Virus genome (UHGV): UHGV-0366749
Strand: one strand, 5' to 3'
Source: a virus
DNA length: 34,495 nt
How positions within the stretch are numbered: the stretch's first letter is position 1; every line of letters starts with the position of its first letter. Shown here piece after piece: positions 239-12,366 of this stretch. The translations under genes and the position numbers were made by a program. The notes beneath the pieces are model-generated. The model searched no databases, had not been told where the DNA came from, and saw only the letters and a list, made by a program, of their open reading frames with translations.

Positions 239-1291
239 TTACGGGGTAATGCCAACCGCTGCCGCCACTTTGTCGCCACTTGGCAGCGTTGCCAGAGGAT
301 TGAAACGGAGCGCCGTTTCCAGATGATCCGGTGCCAGATGTGCGTAACGCATAGTCATTTTTATATCGTGGTGTCCGAGAATTTTTTGTAAGGCCAGAAT
401 GTTTCCACCCGACATCATGAAGTGCGCCGCAAACGTATGGCGCAGAACGTGTGTGAGTTGACCGCGAGGGAGCACGATAGACGTTTTTTCCATCACGGAT
501 AAAAATTGAAAATAGCAGTCTGTGAAGAAATTGAACCCATCAAGCGCCATGATCTCTTCGTAAAGCTCTTTACTGATAGGGATGCTTCTGTTTTTCTTCC
601 CCTTCGTTCTGACAAAGGTAATTCGGTATTTGGTCACCTGTGAGCGGGTAAGATTTACGGCTTCACGCCAGCGTGCGCCTGTGCTTAAGCATATCTTAAC
701 TACCAGTGCCAGAATTGGGTCCTGACGTTTGCAATCAGCCAGCAATTCAACAATCTGCTCATGGGTAAGCCATGCCATCTCTTTTTCTGCGATGGTGAAT
801 TTTCGCATGTTCTCCAGTGGGTTCGGATACGACCATTCGCCCAGACGGGATAGTTCGCTAAAAACACTACTTAGATAGCTTTGCTCCAGGTTAATGGTGA
901 CCGGGCTTGCTCCTTTCTTCCATTTCTCGCTGAAGTAGATCTCGCCTGTCAGGCGTTTATCTCGATAGTGGGCAAACATTTTAGAGGTGAGATCGGTTGC
1001 AAGAGGATTGCCCAGAGCGTCAACCATCAACAGCAATTTGTCATAGACATGCTGCCCAGCTGTCAGAGATTTACCATGTAGTTTGAACCATAGCTCAACC
1101 ACGTCTTTCAGTGTTCGACGATCCACTGATTCACCCAGCCAGGGCTTTGCTTCGGTTTCTTCCATCGTGTGGCGCTCAAAAGCCAGTGCTTCGCCTTTGG
1201 TGACGAATTGTTTACGCACACGACGCCCACTTCGTCCGGCGGGGTAACATTCGCAAAGCCATTTCCCAGTGGTGAGTTTTCGTACTGCCAT
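239..1291 (-). CDS. int: Tyrosine integrase (P2 Int family)
   Basis: C-terminal HxxR…Y tyrosine-recombinase region (…LRHTFAAHFMMSGGNILALQKILGHHDIKMTMRYAH…). Start chosen at the internal ATG (MAVRKLTTGKW…) preceded by GGAGGG; the longer ORF to 1447 is probably an N-terminal over-extension. Confidence 0.9.
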   Translation of the reverse strand: MAVRKLTTGKWLCECYPAGRSGRRVRKQFVTKGEALAFERHTMEETEAKPWLGESVDRRTLKDVVELWFKLHGKSLTAGQHVYDKLLLMVDALGNPLATDLTSKMFAHYRDKRLTGEIYFSEKWKKGASPVTINLEQSYLSSVFSELSRLGEWSYPNPLENMRKFTIAEKEMAWLTHEQIVELLADCKRQDPILALVVKICLSTGARWREAVNLTRSQVTKYRITFVRTKGKKNRSIPISKELYEEIMALDGFNFFTDCYFQFLSVMEKTSIVLPRGQLTHVLRHTFAAHFMMSGGNILALQKILGHHDIKMTMRYAHLAPDHLETALRFNPLATLPSGDKVAAAVGITP

Positions 1292-1479
1292 AAAAAATGC
1301 CCTCCAGTAGAGAGCATTTTCACTGTATGTATAACCAGTGTCAATGTATGAAATCCTACGACCATACATCTCACTGAAGCCATAATTAAGTTGGCTATTC
1401 TTTTTGCTATGTGAGCATGTAACTTTTGCGGTTAACCTGCGGCTCATTTTTATTTTAGACGCAGATATAAAAGCAAAAG

Positions 1480-1671
1480 TTATCGTGAGTTTTTAGTACA
1501 GATTTTTTTGGATTTACTAATAGTTCCATCATTGCAAACGAATTTGCCATCTGAGGTACAGTGAGAAACACCTCCCTTTTTCCCTGAGCAGGGATAATTT
1601 CTAGCATAGGTAGTTAGTGGGTTTAATAACAAAGAACATGACAAAACCACAAAAAATACCTTACCAAGCAT
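1480..1671 (-). CDS. Small secreted cysteine-rich protein (63 aa), possible lysogenic-conversion moron
   Basis: Strong RBS (GGAGG, 5-nt spacer) before the ATG; N-terminal hydrophobic signal-like segment and four Cys in the predicted mature part; AT-rich; lies between cI and int on the lysogenic-strand transcript. Confidence 0.55.
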
Positions 1672-1686
1672 AGTTTCCTCCCGGTA

Positions 1687-2256
1687 CTATTTAACATACT
1701 TGACTGTTAAACTTATAATTTTACCAATTATTTCAATGTCTTCTATCTTGCATTCGAAGGCTCTGTTTCCACCCTCGACGAAGATTCTTCCACCGGGTAA
1801 ACGAGTAATGTCACGGATCGTTATTTCGCCATCAATACTTATTACCCATTTACCATCACGTATATCATCAAATTCTTTATCACAAATAAATTCAGAATTG
1901 TTATCTGTGATGACAAAAGGTTTTTTAAACGTAGAGGGTAGAAATCCCTTATCAAAAATATAAAAACCGTCTTTCTGCAATGCTCCATCAGACAATAAAT
2001 ATTTTTCTACTTCTATAGTATTTGTATTTGCTGATGCTTGCTTTGAACCATGCCCTGTTGTTAGCCAATTAAGCGAGGTGCCCGTTTCAAGGGCGCACTG
2101 GATTACCCAATCTGCTGGAAAAATATCACGCATATAGCGCGTTGCCATGGTGCTCTTAGAAACACCTAAATGATCACATAGAGCCTGACGGGTACCGAAC
2201 CCATATGCTTCAACTAAACGTTCTATGGCTTTCTTACCGCCGCTATTGAAATCCAC
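1687..2256 (-). CDS. cI: 186-type CI immunity repressor
   Basis: Recalled similarity to phage 186 CI (CALETG…WLTTG; LPGG…V.GG…FEC.I.DI). Start set to the GTG preceded by TGGAGGA rather than the upstream ATG at 2343, giving about 190 aa. Confidence 0.75.
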   Translation of the reverse strand: MDFNSGGKKAIERLVEAYGFGTRQALCDHLGVSKSTMATRYMRDIFPADWVIQCALETGTSLNWLTTGHGSKQASANTNTIEVEKYLLSDGALQKDGFYIFDKGFLPSTFKKPFVITDNNSEFICDKEFDDIRDGKWVISIDGEITIRDITRLPGGRIFVEGGNRAFECKIEDIEIIGKIISLTVKYVK

Positions 2257-2401
2257 AAGTCCTCCAAAGAAATCCAAAATTCGTTGACAGATTCCAAAAG
2301 CGATCTTAAAGTTGAACCAGAAGTGTTCTTTTGGAGCCTTCACTACTAATCACGACAAACAACGGCTCGCCACAAGCCATATCTAGAAGGAATGTTGCCT
2401 T

Positions 2402-2605
2402 ATGACACCTAACATTTCAATTACTCTGAATACACCACATGTCACAATCGAACGTTATAGCGAACTGACTGGCCTTTCTATTGATACGATTAACGACATG
2501 TTGGCTGATGGCCGACTACCTCGTCATCGTCTTCGTAAAGACAAAAAACGTGAAAAGGTAATGATTAACCTGGCTGCTCTGACTGTTGATGCTTTGTCTG
2601 CTTAA
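2402..2605 (+). CDS. apl: Apl/Cox-like small DNA-binding protein (first gene of the lytic operon)
   Basis: Divergent from cI, 67 aa and basic, in the position of 186 apl / P2 cox. Assignment is by position rather than sequence. Confidence 0.5.
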
Positions 2606-2669
2606 TAGACGTCTATTTTCGCAATAAGACGCTGAGTTCGATTTTGCGATAAGTTCGGAGTTGAAAACC

Positions 2670-3179
2670 ATGTTTGATTACCAAGTTTCCAAACATCCAC
2701 ATTTTGATGAAGCCTGTCGTGCATTCGCACTGCGCCACAATCTGGTGCAACTGGCAGAACGTGCGGGCATGAATGTGCAGATTCTGCGGAACAAGCTGAA
2801 CCCAGCTCAACCTCATTTATTAACCGCACCAGAAATCTGGCTGCTTACCGATCTGACTGAAGATTCAACGTTGGTAGATGGTTTTCTGGCACAGATTCAT
2901 TGTCTGCCATGTGTACCGATTAATGAGGTAGCAAAAGAGAAACTGCCGCATTACGTCATGAGCGCAACTGCAGAGATCGGGCGTGTTGCAGCAGGTGCGG
3001 TATCTGGTGATGTAAAAACTAGTGCCGGTCGTCGTGATGCTATCAGCAGCATTAACTCTGTAACACGACTGATGGCGCTGGCTGCTGTTTCATTGCAGGC
3101 CCGTTTACAGGCTAATCCTGCGATGGCGAGTGCAGTTGATACCGTGACTGGCCTCGGTGCTTCATTCGGTTTGCTGTGA
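2670..3179 (+). CDS. cII: CII-like lysogeny establishment protein (186 type)
   Basis: 169 aa from the ATG at 2670 (the listed ORF begins at an upstream TTG), the same length as 186 CII, with a CGGAG RBS and the expected position after apl. Confidence 0.65.
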
Positions 3180-4470: not shown

Positions 4471-5324
4471 GCACCATCCTGAAATGGGCGGGAAATAAAA
4501 CCGCCATTATGCCAGAACTGAAAAAATACCTTCCTGCTGGCCCGCGACTGGTTGAACCTTTCGCGGGTTCCTGTGCTGTGATGATGGAAACGGATTATCC
4601 CAGCTATCTGGTTGCGGATATTAATCCTGATTTAATCAACCTCTATAAAAAGGTTGCCGCTGATTGTGAATCGTTTATATCTCGCGCCAGAGTTTTATTT
4701 GAGATCGCAAACAGGGAGGTGGCTTATTACAACATAAGGCAGGAGTTTAACTGCTCAACTGAAATTACTGATTTCATGAAAGCGGTATATTTCCTGTATC
4801 TTAATCGTCACGGTTACCGTGGTTTATGTCGCTATAACAAGAGCGGGCATTTCAACATCCCCTACGGTAATTATAAAAATCCGTATTTCCCTGAAAAAGA
4901 ACTTCGCACATTTGCAGAAAAAGCCCAGCGAGCAACGTTTATCTGCGCCAGCTTTGATGAAACGCTGGCGATGTTGAAGGCGGGAGATGTGGTGTATTGC
5001 GATCCGCCGTATGACGGTACGTTTTCCGGCTATCACACTGATGGTTTCACTGAAGATGACCAGTATCACCTGGCATCCGTTCTTGAACATCGGTCATCAG
5101 AAGGACATCCAGTCATTGTTTCTAACAGTGACACATCCCTGATCCGTTCGCTGTATCGCAATTTTACTCACCACTATATCAAGGTAAAACGCAGCATCGG
5201 TGTGGCAGCTGGCGAGGGTAAATCAGCAACAGAAATCATTGCTGTTTCCGGGCCGCGCTGCTGGATGGGATTTGATTATTCGCGTGGCGTGGATAGTTCT
5301 GCCGTGTACGGAGTACGTGCATGA
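4467..5324 (+). CDS. dam: DNA adenine (N6) methyltransferase, Dam family
   Basis: N-terminal ILKWAGNK…PFAGSCAV (AdoMet-binding) and the DPPY catalytic motif; start overlaps the upstream stop (ATGA) and the stop overlaps the gene A start. Confidence 0.85.
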
Positions 5325-7735
5325 GTCATGCCGATATGAACAACTGCTGCGGCTTTAACGAGGCTGCCGCAGCATTCTCATGGAACAGCCCGAAAAAGGC
5401 CATTAACCCTTATCTGGACCCGGCGGAAGTTGCGCCGGTTTCTACGCTTTCAAACCTGATCACTCTGTACGCTGCCGATAACGAGCAGGAACAGTTGCGC
5501 CGCGAGGCACTGAGTGATCAGGTCTGGGAGCGTTATTTCTTTAATGAATCACGTGATCCTGTCCAGCGCGAAATGGAGCAGGATAAGCTCATTAGCCAGG
5601 CAAAGCTGGCGCATGAGCAGCAGCGTTTTAATTCAGACATGGTCATTCTGGCGGACGTCAACGCCCAGCCTTCCCATATCAGCAAGCCGCTGATGCAACG
5701 TATTGAATACTTCAGCAGCCTGGGCAGGCCAAAGGCTTATTCCCGCTATTTACGTGAGACGATTAAGCCATGTCTGGAACGACTGGAGCATGTACGCGAC
5801 AGTCAGCTATCTGCATCTTTTCGCTTTATGGCAAGCCATGAAGGGCTGGACGGCCTGCTGATCCTGCCTGAAATGAGTCAGGATCAGGTGAAACGCCTGT
5901 CCACCCTGGTAGCTGCGCATATGAGTATGTGCCTTGATGCAGCTTGTGGTGATTTGTATGCCACCGATGACGTTAAGCCAGAAGAAATCCGCAAGACATG
6001 GGAAAAGGTGGCAGCGGAAACCCTGCGTCTGGATGTCATCCCACCTGCGTTTGAGCAACTCCGTCGGAAAAGAAACCGCCGTAAACCCGTGCCCTATGAA
6101 CTCATTCCGGGTTCGCTGGCGCGTATGTTGTGCGCCGACTGGTGGTACCGGAAATTATGGAAGATGCGTTGCGAATGGCGGGAAGAGCAGTTGCGCGCTG
6201 TTTGCCTGGTCAGCAAAAAAGCATCTCCTTATGTCAGCTATGAAGCCGTGATGCATAAACGTGAGCAGCGCCGTAAGTCGCTGGAGTTTTTCCGTTCTCA
6301 TGAACTGGTGAACGAAGACGGCGACACGCTGGACATGGAGGATGTGGTAAACGCCAGCAGCAGCAACCCTGCGCATCGCCGCAATGAGATGATGGCCTGT
6401 GTTAAAGGTCTGGAGCTTATCGCGGAAATGCGCGGTGACTGCGCCGTTTTCTACACTATCACCTGTCCGTCGCGTTTCCATTCCACGCTAAATAACGGCA
6501 GACCAAACCCGACCTGGACAAACGCGACGGTAAGACAAAGCAGCGATTATCTGGTCGGCATGTTTGCTGCATTTCGTAAGGCGATGCACAAAGCCGGGTT
6601 GCGCTGGTATGGCGTGCGGGTGGCTGAGCCGCATCATGATGGCACAGTTCACTGGCACCTGTTGTGTTTCATGCGCAAAAAAGACCGCCGTGCCATCACT
6701 GCATTACTGCGTAAGTTTGCCATCCGTGAAGACCGCGAGGAGCTGGGCAATAACACTGGGCCGCGCTTTAAGTCTGAGTTGATTAACCCGCGCAAAGGAA
6801 CGCCGACAAGCTACATCGCGAAATATATCAGTAAGAACATTGACGGTCGTGGTCTGGCTGGCGAGATCAGCAAGGAAACGGGTAAATCTCTGCGTGATAA
6901 CGCTGAATACGTGAATGCCTGGGCGTCTCTGCATCGTGTTCAGCAATTCCGCTTCTTTGGTATTCCGGGGCGTCAGGCTTACCGTGAACTTCGCTTGCTG
7001 GCTGGTCAGGCGGCAAGGCAACAGGGTGACAAAAAAGCAGGTGTGCCGGTACTGGATAACCCGCGTCTTGATGCCATTCTGGCTGCTGCTGATGCTGGTT
7101 GTTTTGCCACCTACATCATGAAGCAGGGCGGCGTACTGGTTCCCCGTAAATATCACCTCATCAGAACCGCTTATGAAATCAACGAAGAGCCGACCGCCTA
7201 TGGCGATCACGGCATTCGTATTTATGGCATCTGGTCACCCATTGCAGAGGGCAAGATCTGCACTCATGCAGTGAAGTGGAAAATGGTTCGTAAAGCCGTT
7301 GACGTTCAGGAGGCGGCAGCCGACCAGGGCGCTTGCGCCCCTTGGACTCGTGGCAATAACTGTCCCCTTGCTGAAAATTTGTACCAACAAGGGAAAGACA
7401 AATCAGCTGATGGGGATACCAGAACGGATATCACCCGCATGGATGACAAGGAATTGCACGATTACCTGCACAGTATGAACAAAAAAGAGCGCCGGGAACT
7501 GGCTGCAAGGTTACGCCTGGTGAAACCGAAACGGCGTAGAGACTACAAACAGCGAATTACAGATCATCAGCGACAGCAGCTCGTCTATGAACTGAAGTCC
7601 AGAGGATTTGATGGCAGCGAGAAAGAGGTCGATTTACTCCTTCGCGGTGGCAGTATTCCGTCAGGAGCAGGCCTGCGTATCTTCTATCGGAACCAGCGTT
7701 TGCAGGAAGATGATAAGTGGCGGGATCTGTATTAA
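5321..7735 (+). CDS. A: Rolling-circle replication initiation endonuclease (P2 gpA family)
   Basis: 804 aa with an HUH-type motif ([10 protein letters not shown]), the size and position of P2/186 gene A. Confidence 0.9.
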
Positions 7736-8526: not shown

Positions 8527-9726
8527 ATGTATCGTGTGTTGCTTTGGCAAAAAGGAGTTTTAGTGGACAACGGCTCAATCACCTTCTTTGATATTACTGC
8601 TTGTGGGTTTTATCGTTTAAAGAATAAACCCGAAGAGCTTGATTATAAATTCGGCGATCTTATGGGGGTTTTGGACGATTTAGAAGGGTGGCTCAAGGAT
8701 AAAAATTTTGAGCAGACTCTCCCATGGAATAAAGAAGAACAACCTCTGCGAACACGAGTTTACAGTCGAGGCCTTGTGAGGGACAGCCAGACTAAAGATG
8801 CAGTAATTGTTTTATACCGTGAAGTGGGGAACGGTAACGGAATACATGGTATTAAGGTCGGTTCTAAAGTAAGTGGTGATAGTAAAGGAACCATTAGGGC
8901 GGGAAGAGAACATGGTGAGGATAAAATAATTTGGGGTGAACCCTGCTATTACTGGATTATTCCTGAGTTGAATAAAATAGCATCAATCAGATTCCCCCAT
9001 TCTTTCGCTGATACTTATCTCTTCGCACAATACTTCATTCAGCATGTAAATAATAATAGTAAGTTAGGTAAAAGAACGAAATCTAAGCGTACATTTGAAT
9101 CAGCTAAGACCCCTGGTCGTTGTGTGGATGTCTACAATACTAAGTTTCAATATAAAGATGGCAAAAATGAGATAAACTGTATCTTCAAGTTTGTATTGGA
9201 AGAAACAAAACTTAAAGCCGCTGAGGAAAACTTTGAAAGGTTAAGGCATAAAATTACACACACATTGATAAAGGATACAACGGTAATAAACCAAAATGAC
9301 ACAAGGCAACCATTGTTGAAGCTAACAAGTGTAGCTTTAGCATCTCTGGTGGGTGAAGAAAAGCGTAATAAGCTTATTGGGGCACCTCCTGTTTTGGAGC
9401 AGCCTCGTAAAATTGAAGTTAAAATTGACGGTGCACCATCATCGGATGAGCTTCGAAATCTCTTCTCAATGAGAGGTGAAGAGTCTGAATGGGATGTGGG
9501 TTTTTTACTGGCTGATCGTGCTAATCCGGTTTGGCTCAGTAGCTATGTAGCCAGGACTAAACTTCCTCTTCAAGATTCGGATGGGTTTGAGCATTATTCA
9601 GCGCGTTTTTTACTGGATGAAATAAACAAAATTCGTGATGATTTGATTAGTGAAGTAAAATATGCTGAGGAAGCATCCATTAAAGAATCTGAAGCTGCAT
9701 CCACAAAAAAGATAGCGGAAGGTTGA
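8527..9726 (+). CDS. Uncharacterised 399-aa soluble protein, gene 1 of a coupled two-gene accessory cassette
   Basis: Long ORF in a sharply AT-rich island at the P2 tin/old position. An in-frame GTG at 8563 with AAGGAG 5 nt upstream is the more likely start. No Walker A, CD-NTase, reverse-transcriptase or other motif recognised. Confidence 0.7.
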   Translation: MYRVLLWQKGVLVDNGSITFFDITACGFYRLKNKPEELDYKFGDLMGVLDDLEGWLKDKNFEQTLPWNKEEQPLRTRVYSRGLVRDSQTKDAVIVLYREVGNGNGIHGIKVGSKVSGDSKGTIRAGREHGEDKIIWGEPCYYWIIPELNKIASIRFPHSFADTYLFAQYFIQHVNNNSKLGKRTKSKRTFESAKTPGRCVDVYNTKFQYKDGKNEINCIFKFVLEETKLKAAEENFERLRHKITHTLIKDTTVINQNDTRQPLLKLTSVALASLVGEEKRNKLIGAPPVLEQPRKIEVKIDGAPSSDELRNLFSMRGEESEWDVGFLLADRANPVWLSSYVARTKLPLQDSDGFEHYSARFLLDEINKIRDDLISEVKYAEEASIKESEAASTKKIAEG

Positions 9727-9727
9727 T

Positions 9728-10264
9728 ATGACAGAAACGGAAGGTTTGATAATAACAGTTGCAAAACAGCAGGCGATTAATTTTGTTGCTGTTGTTTTGT
9801 GCTGCGTTATAAGCTATTTTTCGTTCAAAAGTTTTTCCTATAATGATGCAAAAGATATTTTAGGTGCGCTTATAAATATTTCAGCATCTATATTCACTAT
9901 TGTCGGTTTATGGGTCGGTTTTTTATATCCGAATGCAATGAATAGTATTGTTAAGGATGATGTAAGTTATATAAAAAATGAGCATGACTCACCAAGAATA
10001 GAGAAATTAGTTTATACAATAATCACATCTGCTTGTGTTATGGCTGGGATTCTAATTTTCTTTTTGGTTAAGGCAGTGTTTTATGCATTACCTGTTTATC
10101 AAGCTAATAAAGACTTGTTTAAATACATTGGTATTTTCTTCATTTACTTTATTAGCTGGATGCAATTAAAATGCGTTATGAGCCTGATTTTGAGTAATTT
10201 ACATTTTGTTAATCACTTACATGGACGTTTAGCAAAAGCGAAATTAGAACACTATGATGAATAA
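9728..10264 (+). CDS. Small membrane protein (178 aa, about four predicted TM helices), gene 2 of the cassette
   Basis: Start overlaps the gene 1 stop (TGATATG); four hydrophobic stretches (e.g. AINFVAVVLCCVISYFSF, LVYTIITSACVMAGILIFFLV); AT-rich. Confidence 0.75.
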   Translation: MTETEGLIITVAKQQAINFVAVVLCCVISYFSFKSFSYNDAKDILGALINISASIFTIVGLWVGFLYPNAMNSIVKDDVSYIKNEHDSPRIEKLVYTIITSACVMAGILIFFLVKAVFYALPVYQANKDLFKYIGIFFIYFISWMQLKCVMSLILSNLHFVNHLHGRLAKAKLEHYDE

Positions 10265-10542: not shown

Positions 10543-12366
10543 TTGAAATGTGCACTATTCCCAGCATTGAGTTGTACCAGATGTCTTTATGGAGGGACTG
10601 TGGCTTTTGTAACTGATATTCGGCTTGAAGATAATGCTATTGCTGCACCTGCGACAGCACAGGTTATGGCTCAGAGGCTAGGATCTGTATTACGTAAGAG
10701 ATATGAAGAATTCATCCATAAAAGAGAGTGTGCACCAGGCCAAGCAGACTATGATGTAAAAATGGCTAGCAGGGCTTTAGCTGCATTCACTATGTATCAG
10801 TTAGGATGTGTGGATGATAAGTATGCAGGGGAGTCTGTATGTGATAGTAGTGAAGATGGTGGTATAGATGGAATAGCAATCAACCATAACGAAAAAATCG
10901 TTGTTGTTGTTCAATCAAAATTTCACCAATCGGGAAACGGCACTTGGACAAGAGCCGATTTTATGTGTTTTAAGGATGCTTGTGAGAAGCTACAAAGTGA
11001 AAGATACGAATTATTTGATTCCATATTGCAAAATAAAAGCGGGGAAATAAGTGCGGCTTTAAGTAGTTTTGAATACAAGTTCATCTTTGCGATGGCGCAT
11101 ACAGGTAAAAAAGGTGCTGCAGAGGAAATATTAAATGATATGCGGGAATGGCAATATCAATTAAACGCTGCAGCTTTTACACCTGAGGATGAGCCTAAAG
11201 AGAACTGGGGATTTCAGGTTCATTTAATATCCTCTGAAGATATGATGCATTGGTTACAGAATGGCTCTCGAAATCAAATTGATCTTAACAGGGTTGAAAT
11301 TGAGCGTTTTGGATTTTTGAATGAACCATATCAAGCTTTTTACGGGGCTATTAGTGGTGATCAAGTTGCAGAATGGTGGGAAGAGCATGGTGCTCGATTA
11401 TTTACAAAAAACATAAGGAATATGCTTGGTAAAACAGAAGTGAATGAGGAAATAAAAAAGACAGCTATAGATAATCCTGATATGTTTTGGTTTTATAATA
11501 ATGGGATTACTGTACTGGTTAAGGAGGTTGTTCCTCATAGACGAAACGCAGCTCCTAATATAGAGAGAGGGATTTTTGATTTTCGTGATGTAAGTGTAAT
11601 TAATGGTGCACAAACAGTCAGTAGTATTGGCGCATGTAAAGATGCGCTTGGTGAAAACATATATAGACTCAAAGTGCCAGCTAGATTCATTGTTATAGAT
11701 GATGATACTGATAATTTAACTGCAAATGCGATTACAAAAGCTAACAATTTCCAAAATAGAGTATTGGGAAGGGATTTTGCGTCGCAGCAGGCAGATCAAC
11801 ATAGATTGGCAAGGGAGTTAGTGCTTGAAGGATATCAATATCAGTTACTAAGAACAGATGAAGATCATTCACAGACAAATACGAAAGTCATTGACTTGGA
11901 TGAGGCGCTCAATGCACTCGCATGTTTAAGTAAAAATAATACGGTTGTATCGACACTAAAATCAAATCGCGGTAGGTTTTTTGAAAATTTTGAAGGCTCT
12001 CTATATAAAACTATTTTCAATCCAAGATTAAGTGGTTTAAAACTTATCAATACTGTTCTACATTTTAGAGTTATAGATAAGTTGATCGGTAAAACATTAC
12101 TATCAGTAGATAAAACTACCCATAGTCGCAAGCATTTAATTATTACGCATGGTAATAGATACTATGCGTCTGTGCTATTGAGCAACGTTTCTGGGATACA
12201 TAATAGCTCAGAAATTCTTGTTCCAGATGAAAAAAATCTTTCAGAAGAATTAAGTGCATTAATTCAACGTGCTGAAGAGTACATTGAAGATAATTACCCG
12301 AATGCCTATCCGGCAAGATTTTTTGCAAATCCAACGAAAATACAAGAGTTATACGATAATGTTTAA
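10543..12366 (+). CDS. AIPR-like abortive-infection protein with an N-terminal Mrr-like PD-(D/E)xK nuclease motif
   Basis: SEDGGIDGIAINHNEKIVVVVQSKF fits the Mrr catalytic core (DGGIDG…QxK); an NGITVL…INGAQT segment lies mid-protein; AT-rich. Start is uncertain (TTG 10543, GTG 10600 after GGAGGG, or ATG 10666). Confidence 0.7.
   Translation: MKCALFPALSCTRCLYGGTVAFVTDIRLEDNAIAAPATAQVMAQRLGSVLRKRYEEFIHKRECAPGQADYDVKMASRALAAFTMYQLGCVDDKYAGESVCDSSEDGGIDGIAINHNEKIVVVVQSKFHQSGNGTWTRADFMCFKDACEKLQSERYELFDSILQNKSGEISAALSSFEYKFIFAMAHTGKKGAAEEILNDMREWQYQLNAAAFTPEDEPKENWGFQVHLISSEDMMHWLQNGSRNQIDLNRVEIERFGFLNEPYQAFYGAISGDQVAEWWEEHGARLFTKNIRNMLGKTEVNEEIKKTAIDNPDMFWFYNNGITVLVKEVVPHRRNAAPNIERGIFDFRDVSVINGAQTVSSIGACKDALGENIYRLKVPARFIVIDDDTDNLTANAITKANNFQNRVLGRDFASQQADQHRLARELVLEGYQYQLLRTDEDHSQTNTKVIDLDEALNALACLSKNNTVVSTLKSNRGRFFENFEGSLYKTIFNPRLSGLKLINTVLHFRVIDKLIGKTLLSVDKTTHSRKHLIITHGNRYYASVLLSNVSGIHNSSEILVPDEKNLSEELSALIQRAEEYIEDNYPNAYPARFFANPTKIQELYDNV

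Follow-up and report, generated by a model that had tools for sequence, protein, structure and literature searches.

UHGV virus genome UHGV-0366749, a 34,495-nucleotide (nt) stretch of viral DNA (hereafter, the window), carries on its minus strand a short open reading frame (ORF) between the immunity repressor gene cI and the integrase gene int that belongs, by its sequence, to the YdcA family of small, predicted periplasmic proteins. A first-pass annotation had drawn attention to the strong ribosome-binding site of this 63-amino acid (aa) ORF, to its AT-rich setting on the strand shared by cI and int, and to a signal-like N-terminus followed by four cysteines, and all of these features are present. 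Reading along the minus strand, the cI stop codon TAG (1689-1687) is followed by TACCGGGAGGAAACT and then by the ATG start codon (1671-1669), and G+C content around the ORF is 0.32-0.37 compared with 0.45-0.52 in the flanks. The 40 mature residues include four cysteines (C28, C38, C46 and C58), seven lysines and two arginines, and a fifth cysteine, C12, falls within the signal peptide. The ORF is a genuine gene for what its composition and signals predict to be a small, exported, Cys-rich protein. An overlapping 50-aa ORF in another frame (1455-1607) had no support and was disregarded.

Table 1 Features of the cI-int region of UHGV-0366749 and its right flank
Feature	Positions	Strand	Basis and remarks
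Tyrosine integrase (int), 350 aa	239..1291	-	Pfam Int_N, Phage_integrase; RefSeq 1053-nt coding sequence
ydcA-int spacer, 188 nt	1292..1479	-	No minus-strand terminator; the module's left recombination boundary falls here, at about 1349-1369
Low-G+C mosaic module, cI + ydcA	1370..2350	.	megablast and G+C profile; exchanged as a unit among P2/186-like phages
ydcA-like gene	1480..1671	-	63 codons + stop, ATG start, precursor 6.8 kDa; ORF list
Mature YdcA domain, residues 24-63	1483..1602	-	40 aa, 4.29 kDa, isoelectric point 9.7, net charge +7
Signal peptide, residues 1-23	1603..1671	-	Hydrophobicity and -3/-1 rule; predicted signal peptidase I cut after TYA
cI-ydcA intergenic spacer, 15 nt, no terminator	1672..1686	-	Sequence and terminator scan
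Shine-Dalgarno sequence GGGAGG	1677..1682	-	ATG 5 nt downstream; read from sequence
cI immunity repressor, 186 type	1687..2256 (mechanical ORF to 2343)	-	Phage_CI_repr 3e-31, Phage_CI_C 5e-29; RefSeq 570-nt coding sequence, PGAP start
Apl/Cox-like excisionase-repressor, divergent from cI	2402..2605	+	phrog_575 1e-29; pR/pL switch in 2257-2401
CII-like activator	2661..3179	+	Phage_CP76 3e-42

The signal peptide was assigned with a heuristic that combines Kyte-Doolittle hydrophobicity with the -3/-1 rule, and comprises a short basic n-region (K4), a 15-residue hydrophobic core (mean Kyte-Doolittle 2.2) and T-Y-A at -3/-1. Among 26 aligned homologues the signal peptides are unrelated in sequence and all end at one column, between the A and the [KR]NYPCS at the start of a mature domain that is nearly invariant. 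This combination of divergent signal peptides with a fixed end and a near-invariant mature domain argues for an exported protein, and Sec export with cleavage after TYA is a well-supported prediction. Anchoring as a lipoprotein through Cys12, in place of a soluble periplasmic state, is hinted at by the loosely lipobox-like V-L-S-C at residues 9-12 and by one UniRef entry, a Yersinia homologue, named 'Lipoprotein'. However, Cys12 lies too near the N-terminus, with hydrophobic residues running on past it, sister alleles carry I, V or F at -1 (LLIC, ILVC, LFVC, LLFC), most homologues have no Cys at this position, and all homologues have an A-x-A-type site ahead of the domain. We rejected this highly improbable reading, as the sequence does not present a lipobox of the form [LVI][ASTVI][GAS]C after a complete n- and h-region, and the sister alleles and Cys-less homologues speak against it.

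Homology searches assigned the ORF to a named family. The NCBIfam model NF007463 (PRK10040.1-2) matched residues 5-63 with 115.8 bits (cutoff 93, E 5.3e-34), PHROG 6000, of unknown function, matched with E 1.9e-34, and PF27300, 'YdcA', is precomputed on nearly all homologues of the ORF. A Pfam scan of the ORF itself returned only a sub-threshold chance match (GULLO2-like, E 0.075), because PF27300 is newer than the Pfam release scanned. RefSeq annotates the identical locus as WP_000900883.1, 'YdcA family protein'; the ORF is thus, on sequence grounds, a YdcA family member whose identical protein is already annotated and classified, with its function unassigned, and the feature is therefore already known. 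The first-pass interpretation is supported as to a genuine gene with an exported product in the cI-int unit, but it had overlooked membership of the YdcA family (PF27300). Length and layout are those of the family (63 aa, with the heuristic signal peptide at residues 1-23 and a single ~33-aa domain; family range 55-65 aa), and every column invariant in alignments A2 and A5 is present (C28, C38, C46, C58, K32, G33, G34, F44, D48, G49, S52, S54 and K55). Escherichia coli K-12 YdcA, a 57-aa chromosomal paralogue, and its family (PF27300; PRK10040 NF007462-NF007464; PHROG 6000) share with the phage protein a signal peptide followed by a ~33-aa four-Cys domain, and the motif PCSG.KGG[IV]SHC...GKFVCNDG[ST].S.SKK.C. 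Unlike K-12 ydcA, the phage gene is prophage-borne, lies right after cI and has an unrelated signal peptide, and its product fits the phage-type model NF007463, not the K-12 model NF007462 (68.5 bits, cutoff 118).

The gene is widespread and conserved. Identical DNA occurs in E. coli chromosomes, where the prophage is integrated beside rcdA, and 709 of 5426 complete E. coli genomes (about 13%) contain the stretch spanning cI and the ORF. The exact protein is encoded on >1000 contigs, relatives are encoded on >535 IMG/VR viral contig stretches, and a family profile search of 1.8 billion representatives returned 446 clusters. Non-phage copies are numerous in alpha-, beta- and gammaproteobacteria, which, together with the K-12 paralogue, indicates that YdcA is not a phage-specific invention. 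Nine near-identical alleles differ at 15 synonymous and 2 non-synonymous sites, with both non-synonymous changes in the signal peptide or at +1, leaving 13 synonymous and 0 non-synonymous polymorphisms in the mature domain. Compared with the 69%-identical allele of prophage locus L167, the 31 core codons have changed synonymously 20 times and non-synonymously twice; synonymous divergence (dS) is saturated and non-synonymous divergence (dN) is 0.028. The phage domain departs from that of K-12 at only 9 non-synonymous positions. The ORF is plainly under strong purifying selection. The matches to NF007463 and phrog_6000, the >1000 contigs and the synonymous excess place the ORF well beyond chance. 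In PMC11340327, E. coli YdcA appears as a small protein that bears a signal sequence, has no known function and is predicted to be periplasmic, and the literature searched assigns no function to the YdcA family and no phenotype to the phage copy.

We next placed the gene within its transcription unit. The immunity region is 186-like (CI/Apl/CII/Fil), not P2-like, and the phage is a member of the Peduoviridae; fil-like and replication genes lie to the right of cII. According to the annotation of phage 186, CII activates pE, and the lysogenic transcripts from pL and pE read cI and then int. A terminator scan of the window found no minus-strand site between 1290 and 2127, and the same scan showed no promoter-like site on this strand either from cI to the ORF or from the ORF to int. 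The 15-nt gap and the lack of a terminator after cI argue that ydcA is almost certainly co-transcribed with cI in lysogens, and by the same sequence reasoning it would almost certainly be made whenever CI is made. A gene pair in a comparable seat is lambda rexAB, which is co-transcribed with cI; ydcA resembles it in being a non-essential gene riding the repressor transcript, and would hence be expressed in each lysogen. The analogy is one of position and logic only, with no relation in sequence or structure. An Rfam search of 1200-2500 returned only a chance Phe_leader match (E 0.96), and the ydcA-int spacer therefore holds no known RNA element. Several further signals were observed in and around this unit. 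The mechanical int ORF (239-1447, minus strand, 402 aa) over-extends, the RefSeq start at 1291 giving the 350-aa protein, and a promoter-like TTGACA-17-GAAAAT lies on the minus strand at 1344-1316, directly upstream of int. On the plus strand, a near-consensus sigma-70-like TTAACA-17-TATAAT (1691-1719, 11/12) lies opposite the 3' end of cI in antisense orientation, and the ydcA-int spacer contains a hairpin with a T-run behind it (1426-1442); in such AT-rich DNA, either may be due to chance.

In a megablast search against sequenced phages, int up to 1349-1369 and everything to the right of 2350 matched at 90-98%, whereas 1370-2350 had no match, indicating that cI and ydcA move as one low-G+C unit. 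In P2, as the first-pass annotation stated, nothing is annotated between C and int, and in phage 186 cI directly adjoins int. An unannotated 60-aa YdcA homologue, whose ATG overlaps the cI stop codon, is present in Haemophilus phages HP2 and S2, and their annotation is corrected accordingly by adding this ydcA-like ORF. The order cI-ydcA-int recurs in three Yersinia species and one Pasteurellaceae genome, and a ydcA-like gene again follows cI in Buttiauxella, in each case with CI about 33-37% identical; other E. coli and Klebsiella prophages, with CI 65% identical, have the order cI-ydcA-KAP NTPase-int. HP2/S2 and the Yersinia, Klebsiella and E. coli P2/186-like prophages hold members of the same family directly downstream of cI, at identities of 32-65% for cI and 49-98% for int. 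They differ in what follows: HP2 has a secreted OB-fold (tRNA_anti-like) gene between ydcA and int, the E. coli and Klebsiella variants have the KAP NTPase there, and in Atlantibacter the ydcA-like gene lies beyond int. As judged from these comparisons, the cI-ydcA position is old and conserved.

The same slot also holds defence-related genes and can do without ydcA. In phage vB_EcoM-813R9, which has an int of 98% DNA identity, it is taken up by a PD-Lambda-1-like ATPase (E 3e-120; locus L006, 4374-6050), and the KAP NTPase that follows the ydcA-like gene in loci L167 (5198-6529) and L177 (4198-5529) matches PADLOC PDC-S20 (E 1e-171). In a 2026 survey, the interval between integrase and primase is among the hotspots for defence genes in P2-like phages, as a minor one (PMC13586616). 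With P2 and 186 lacking the gene and vB_EcoM-813R9 carrying a different one in its place, comparative sequence supports ydcA as dispensable accessory (moron-type) cargo of the prophage. In unrelated phages of Moraxella (Mcat) and Acinetobacter, ydcA homologues lie among structural genes, which is typical moron behaviour. The 232-aa gene that follows ydcA in Moraxella is unrelated to HP2 orf1(S) (BLASTP E 1.0), so that no two-gene cassette is conserved. We set aside the UniRef label 'Conjugal transfer protein' as a propagated annotation that could not be linked to a tra gene function: on a small Acinetobacter MOBQ plasmid the ydcA-like gene adjoins 'TraD', and on p3ABAYE no transfer genes lie close to it.

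Longer family members link the domain to secreted nucleases. In these proteins the same YdcA domain directly follows the signal peptide and is joined by long Pro/Thr/Ser linkers to an SNase, Endonuclease_NS or PLD-type (PLDc_2) nuclease domain; nuclease-linked proteins and loci include P0108, P0147, P0192, P0213 and P0220, and L022, L023, L070, L072, L073, L081 and L082. The combination of PF27300 with PF01223 (YdcA plus Endonuclease_NS) is a stable and common architecture: 117 of the best 120 clusters have it, Methylobacter among them, and it is widespread in Methylococcales. Among 80 species-representative loci, 7 have an SNase fused or adjacent on the same strand, and SNase occurs nowhere else in those 640 kb; the fused locus is L082, with P0108 a fusion seen among the family proteins, and a separate SNase gene adjoins ydcA, with an overlap or a gap of <125 nt, in L070, L081, L022, L023, L072 and L073. 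The phage ORF differs from the secreted nucleases in consisting of the domain alone with no nuclease gene beside it, and no SNase gene is adjacent in the phage copies examined. Proteins with two or three tandem YdcA domains also exist, and the domain is basic, with a mean charge of +3.4 against +7 for the phage copy. Three beta-proteobacterial members of ~101-105 aa (P0056, P0058 and P0062) carry a second Cys-rich segment at the C-terminus (C.C....CTGPRGG.YC) that looks as if the first half of the YdcA domain had been repeated in degenerate form.

The Rosetta-stone pattern of SNase genes that are either fused (L082, P0108) or separate neighbours (six loci) would also be expected if the domain bound a secreted or periplasmic nuclease as a regulator, pro-domain or immunity factor, in which case the prophage copy would modulate a host or incoming nuclease. 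We consider this improbable. Long Pro/Thr/Ser linkers, like tandem repeats, typically accompany modules that bind a substrate, the phage copies examined have no SNase gene beside them, and three unrelated nuclease folds carry the domain, so that a shared substrate fits better than a specific inhibitor.

Structural comparison pointed to a possible relative in a secretion machine. The AlphaFold2 model has a predicted local distance difference test score (pLDDT) of 83-91 over the core and forms a disulfide-rich two-strand beta hairpin. With the signal-less model, the top Foldseek match in the PDB was Dis2 (7muc_AN; probability 0.98, 38% identity over 40 columns), and Dis2 was also the top PDB match by sequence, with E 3.6e-5 for the full profile and 0.012 for the domain-only profile; the weaker value with the domain-only profile indicates that part of the full-profile score came from signal peptides. 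A Foldseek search of BFVD viral structures gave nothing below E 0.9. Dis2 (Lpg0823) belongs to the Legionella pneumophila Dot/Icm outer-membrane cap (7MUC/7MUD), and each of its lobes shares with YdcA the pattern CS.MGGI..C....VCN[ND]G..S and a disulfide-pinned mini-fold. It differs from the ORF product in having two lobes, five disulfides and 124 aa, in being part of a type IV secretion system (T4SS) and in not being comparably basic; the ORF, with a single lobe and four Cys in a P2-like prophage, is not a Dis2 protein and resembles it at the domain level only. Dis2 is probably a structural relative of the YdcA domain, although the E of 0.012 without the signal peptide is statistically marginal. 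The literature calls Dis2 Legionellales-specific and without homologues (PMC8486379, PMC12716638), and the YdcA motif is seen in both of its lobes (PDB 7MUC/7MUD, chain AN). We also considered DUF3761 (PF12587) as a circular permutation of the domain: a pure permutation gave no match, and a construct with added residues scored 22.1 bits, below the cutoff of 29 and biased by the edits.

The Dis2 likeness suggests an alternative in which the peptide docks, Dis2-like, to outer-membrane lipoproteins or to the inner face of the outer membrane, masking or modulating a receptor, a pilus, a T4SS or a type VI secretion system (T6SS); nucleases that carry the domain would then simply be anchored to the envelope through it. 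Apart from the leading rank of Dis2 in the PDB by fold and by sequence, P0080, a family member with two lobes, shares 50% identity with Dis2 lobe 1 over 26 aa, and Dis2, with its two similar lobes and five disulfides, sits near the outer membrane in contact with DotK, DotC and DotD (PMC8486379, PMC12716638). Two family members have links to secretion systems: a 133-aa protein with a YdcA domain is encoded within a T6SS cluster on Citrobacter plasmid NZ_CP053574 (L181, 4926-5327), next to a GIY-YIG nuclease and close to a VasL-domain protein, and P0125 is a fusion to the C-terminal region of VasL. Prophage proteins that mask receptors, Cor and Llp for example, form a well-known class; they are likewise exported and have no sequence or structural relationship to the ORF. 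However, nuclease association is much commoner in the family than association with secretion systems, the window holds no T4SS or T6SS, and Dis2, which is dispensable (PMC8486379, PMC12716638), has no assigned function of its own. We regard docking as unlikely yet credible.

The explanation that we favour, at slightly better than even odds, is that ydcA is a functional moron-type gene of a 186-like prophage, encoding a YdcA mini-protein that serves as an exported binding module with a conversion effect at the envelope. The gene would share the leftward transcript with cI and probably with int (from pL in the lysogen and from pE at establishment) and translated from its own strong Shine-Dalgarno sequence; the precursor would be exported by Sec and cut after TYA, leaving a 40-residue peptide that would be oxidised to two disulfides in the periplasm. 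The gene's context and the pattern of conservation support these expression, export and oxidation steps well. On the basis of domain architecture, we infer that the mature peptide may then act as a small, very basic module that binds nucleic acid, another polyanion or a nuclease, a reading that draws on the fusion or adjacency to three unrelated kinds of nuclease, the flexible linkers, the tandem repeats and the charge. The likeliest pay-off to the lysogen would, conjecturally, be an exclusion-like form of envelope-level lysogenic conversion acting on incoming DNA or phage. Cor, Llp and SieA are envelope-level prophage exclusion proteins, to which the likeness is one of position only. Keeping out incoming DNA or phage is the version that attracts most, because the gene is coupled to cI and has its address in a defence hotspot, and the lysogenic-conversion or exclusion role raised in the first-pass annotation is plausible as a conjecture.

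Several observations weigh against this explanation. No activity-defining experiment exists for any YdcA family member, and the transcription, export and disulfides of the ydcA product are themselves read from sequence. Most family members stand alone in housekeeping neighbourhoods, the nuclease link covering a minority, and the ORF matched 0 defence families in PADLOC-DB 2.0. In Dis2, the nearest structure that has been solved, the binding partners are proteins close to the outer membrane and not DNA. Phage DNA normally passes through the periplasm in a conduit, which makes simple DNA capture uncertain as an exclusion mechanism. Finally, the phenotypes of chromosomal ydcA point to envelope or acid stress, not to DNA: its deletion renders E. 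coli W sensitive to 300 mM 3-hydroxypropionate, and the gene is reported to be induced at pH 5 under YdcI (PMC7642389).

These phenotypes suggest that the phage copy could instead act as chromosomal YdcA might, raising the tolerance of the envelope to acid or organic-acid stress to the benefit of the lysogen. The close similarity of the phage and K-12 domains favours such a role, as do the many ydcA copies that are chromosomal and off mobile elements. In contrast, the phenotype is a single one and comes with no mechanism, E. coli that already has ydcA would gain little from an extra copy, and stress tolerance leaves unexplained both the nuclease fusions and adjacency and the fixed cI-side seat in a defence hotspot. 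We judge this host-fitness role distinctly unlikely. Computation does not separate the binding-module model from docking, stress tolerance or nuclease regulation.

A bolder form of the binding-module explanation, which we hold to be rather unlikely, is that YdcA is an unrecognised periplasmic or extracellular nucleic-acid-binding mini-domain common to the stand-alone proteins, the secreted nucleases and Dis2, and that the free, repressor-linked copy intercepts incoming DNA. If so, each lysogen of the P2/186/HP type would possess a periplasmic interceptor of superinfecting-phage, conjugative or transforming DNA, an envelope-level companion to repressor immunity. The gene was already catalogued and adds no new kind of element; what is new is the cI-ydcA synteny across distant Peduoviridae, the annotation gap in HP2 and S2, the nuclease association and the probable relationship to Dis2. 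The conserved seat on the repressor transcript, the nuclease link and the likely relative Dis2 provide handles on an uncharacterised K-12 family and make its function directly testable.

Two further observations concern the wider prophage and its relatives. A 3-kb contig from a metagenome-assembled genome labelled 'Bacillota bacterium' (L007, JAEWTL010000113.1) is a fragment of an E. coli-type P2-like prophage, with int 99% and ydcA 100% identical, and is probably a binning contaminant. Elsewhere in the window, on the plus strand, genes at 8527-9726, 9728-10264 and 10543-12366 match the PADLOC candidate system PDC-M18 A/B (6e-31, 3e-18) and an AbiU-like protein (7e-25). These lie between the GpA replication gene (5321-7735) and the portal/terminase block, so that two likely anti-phage systems fill the classical defence hotspot of P2.
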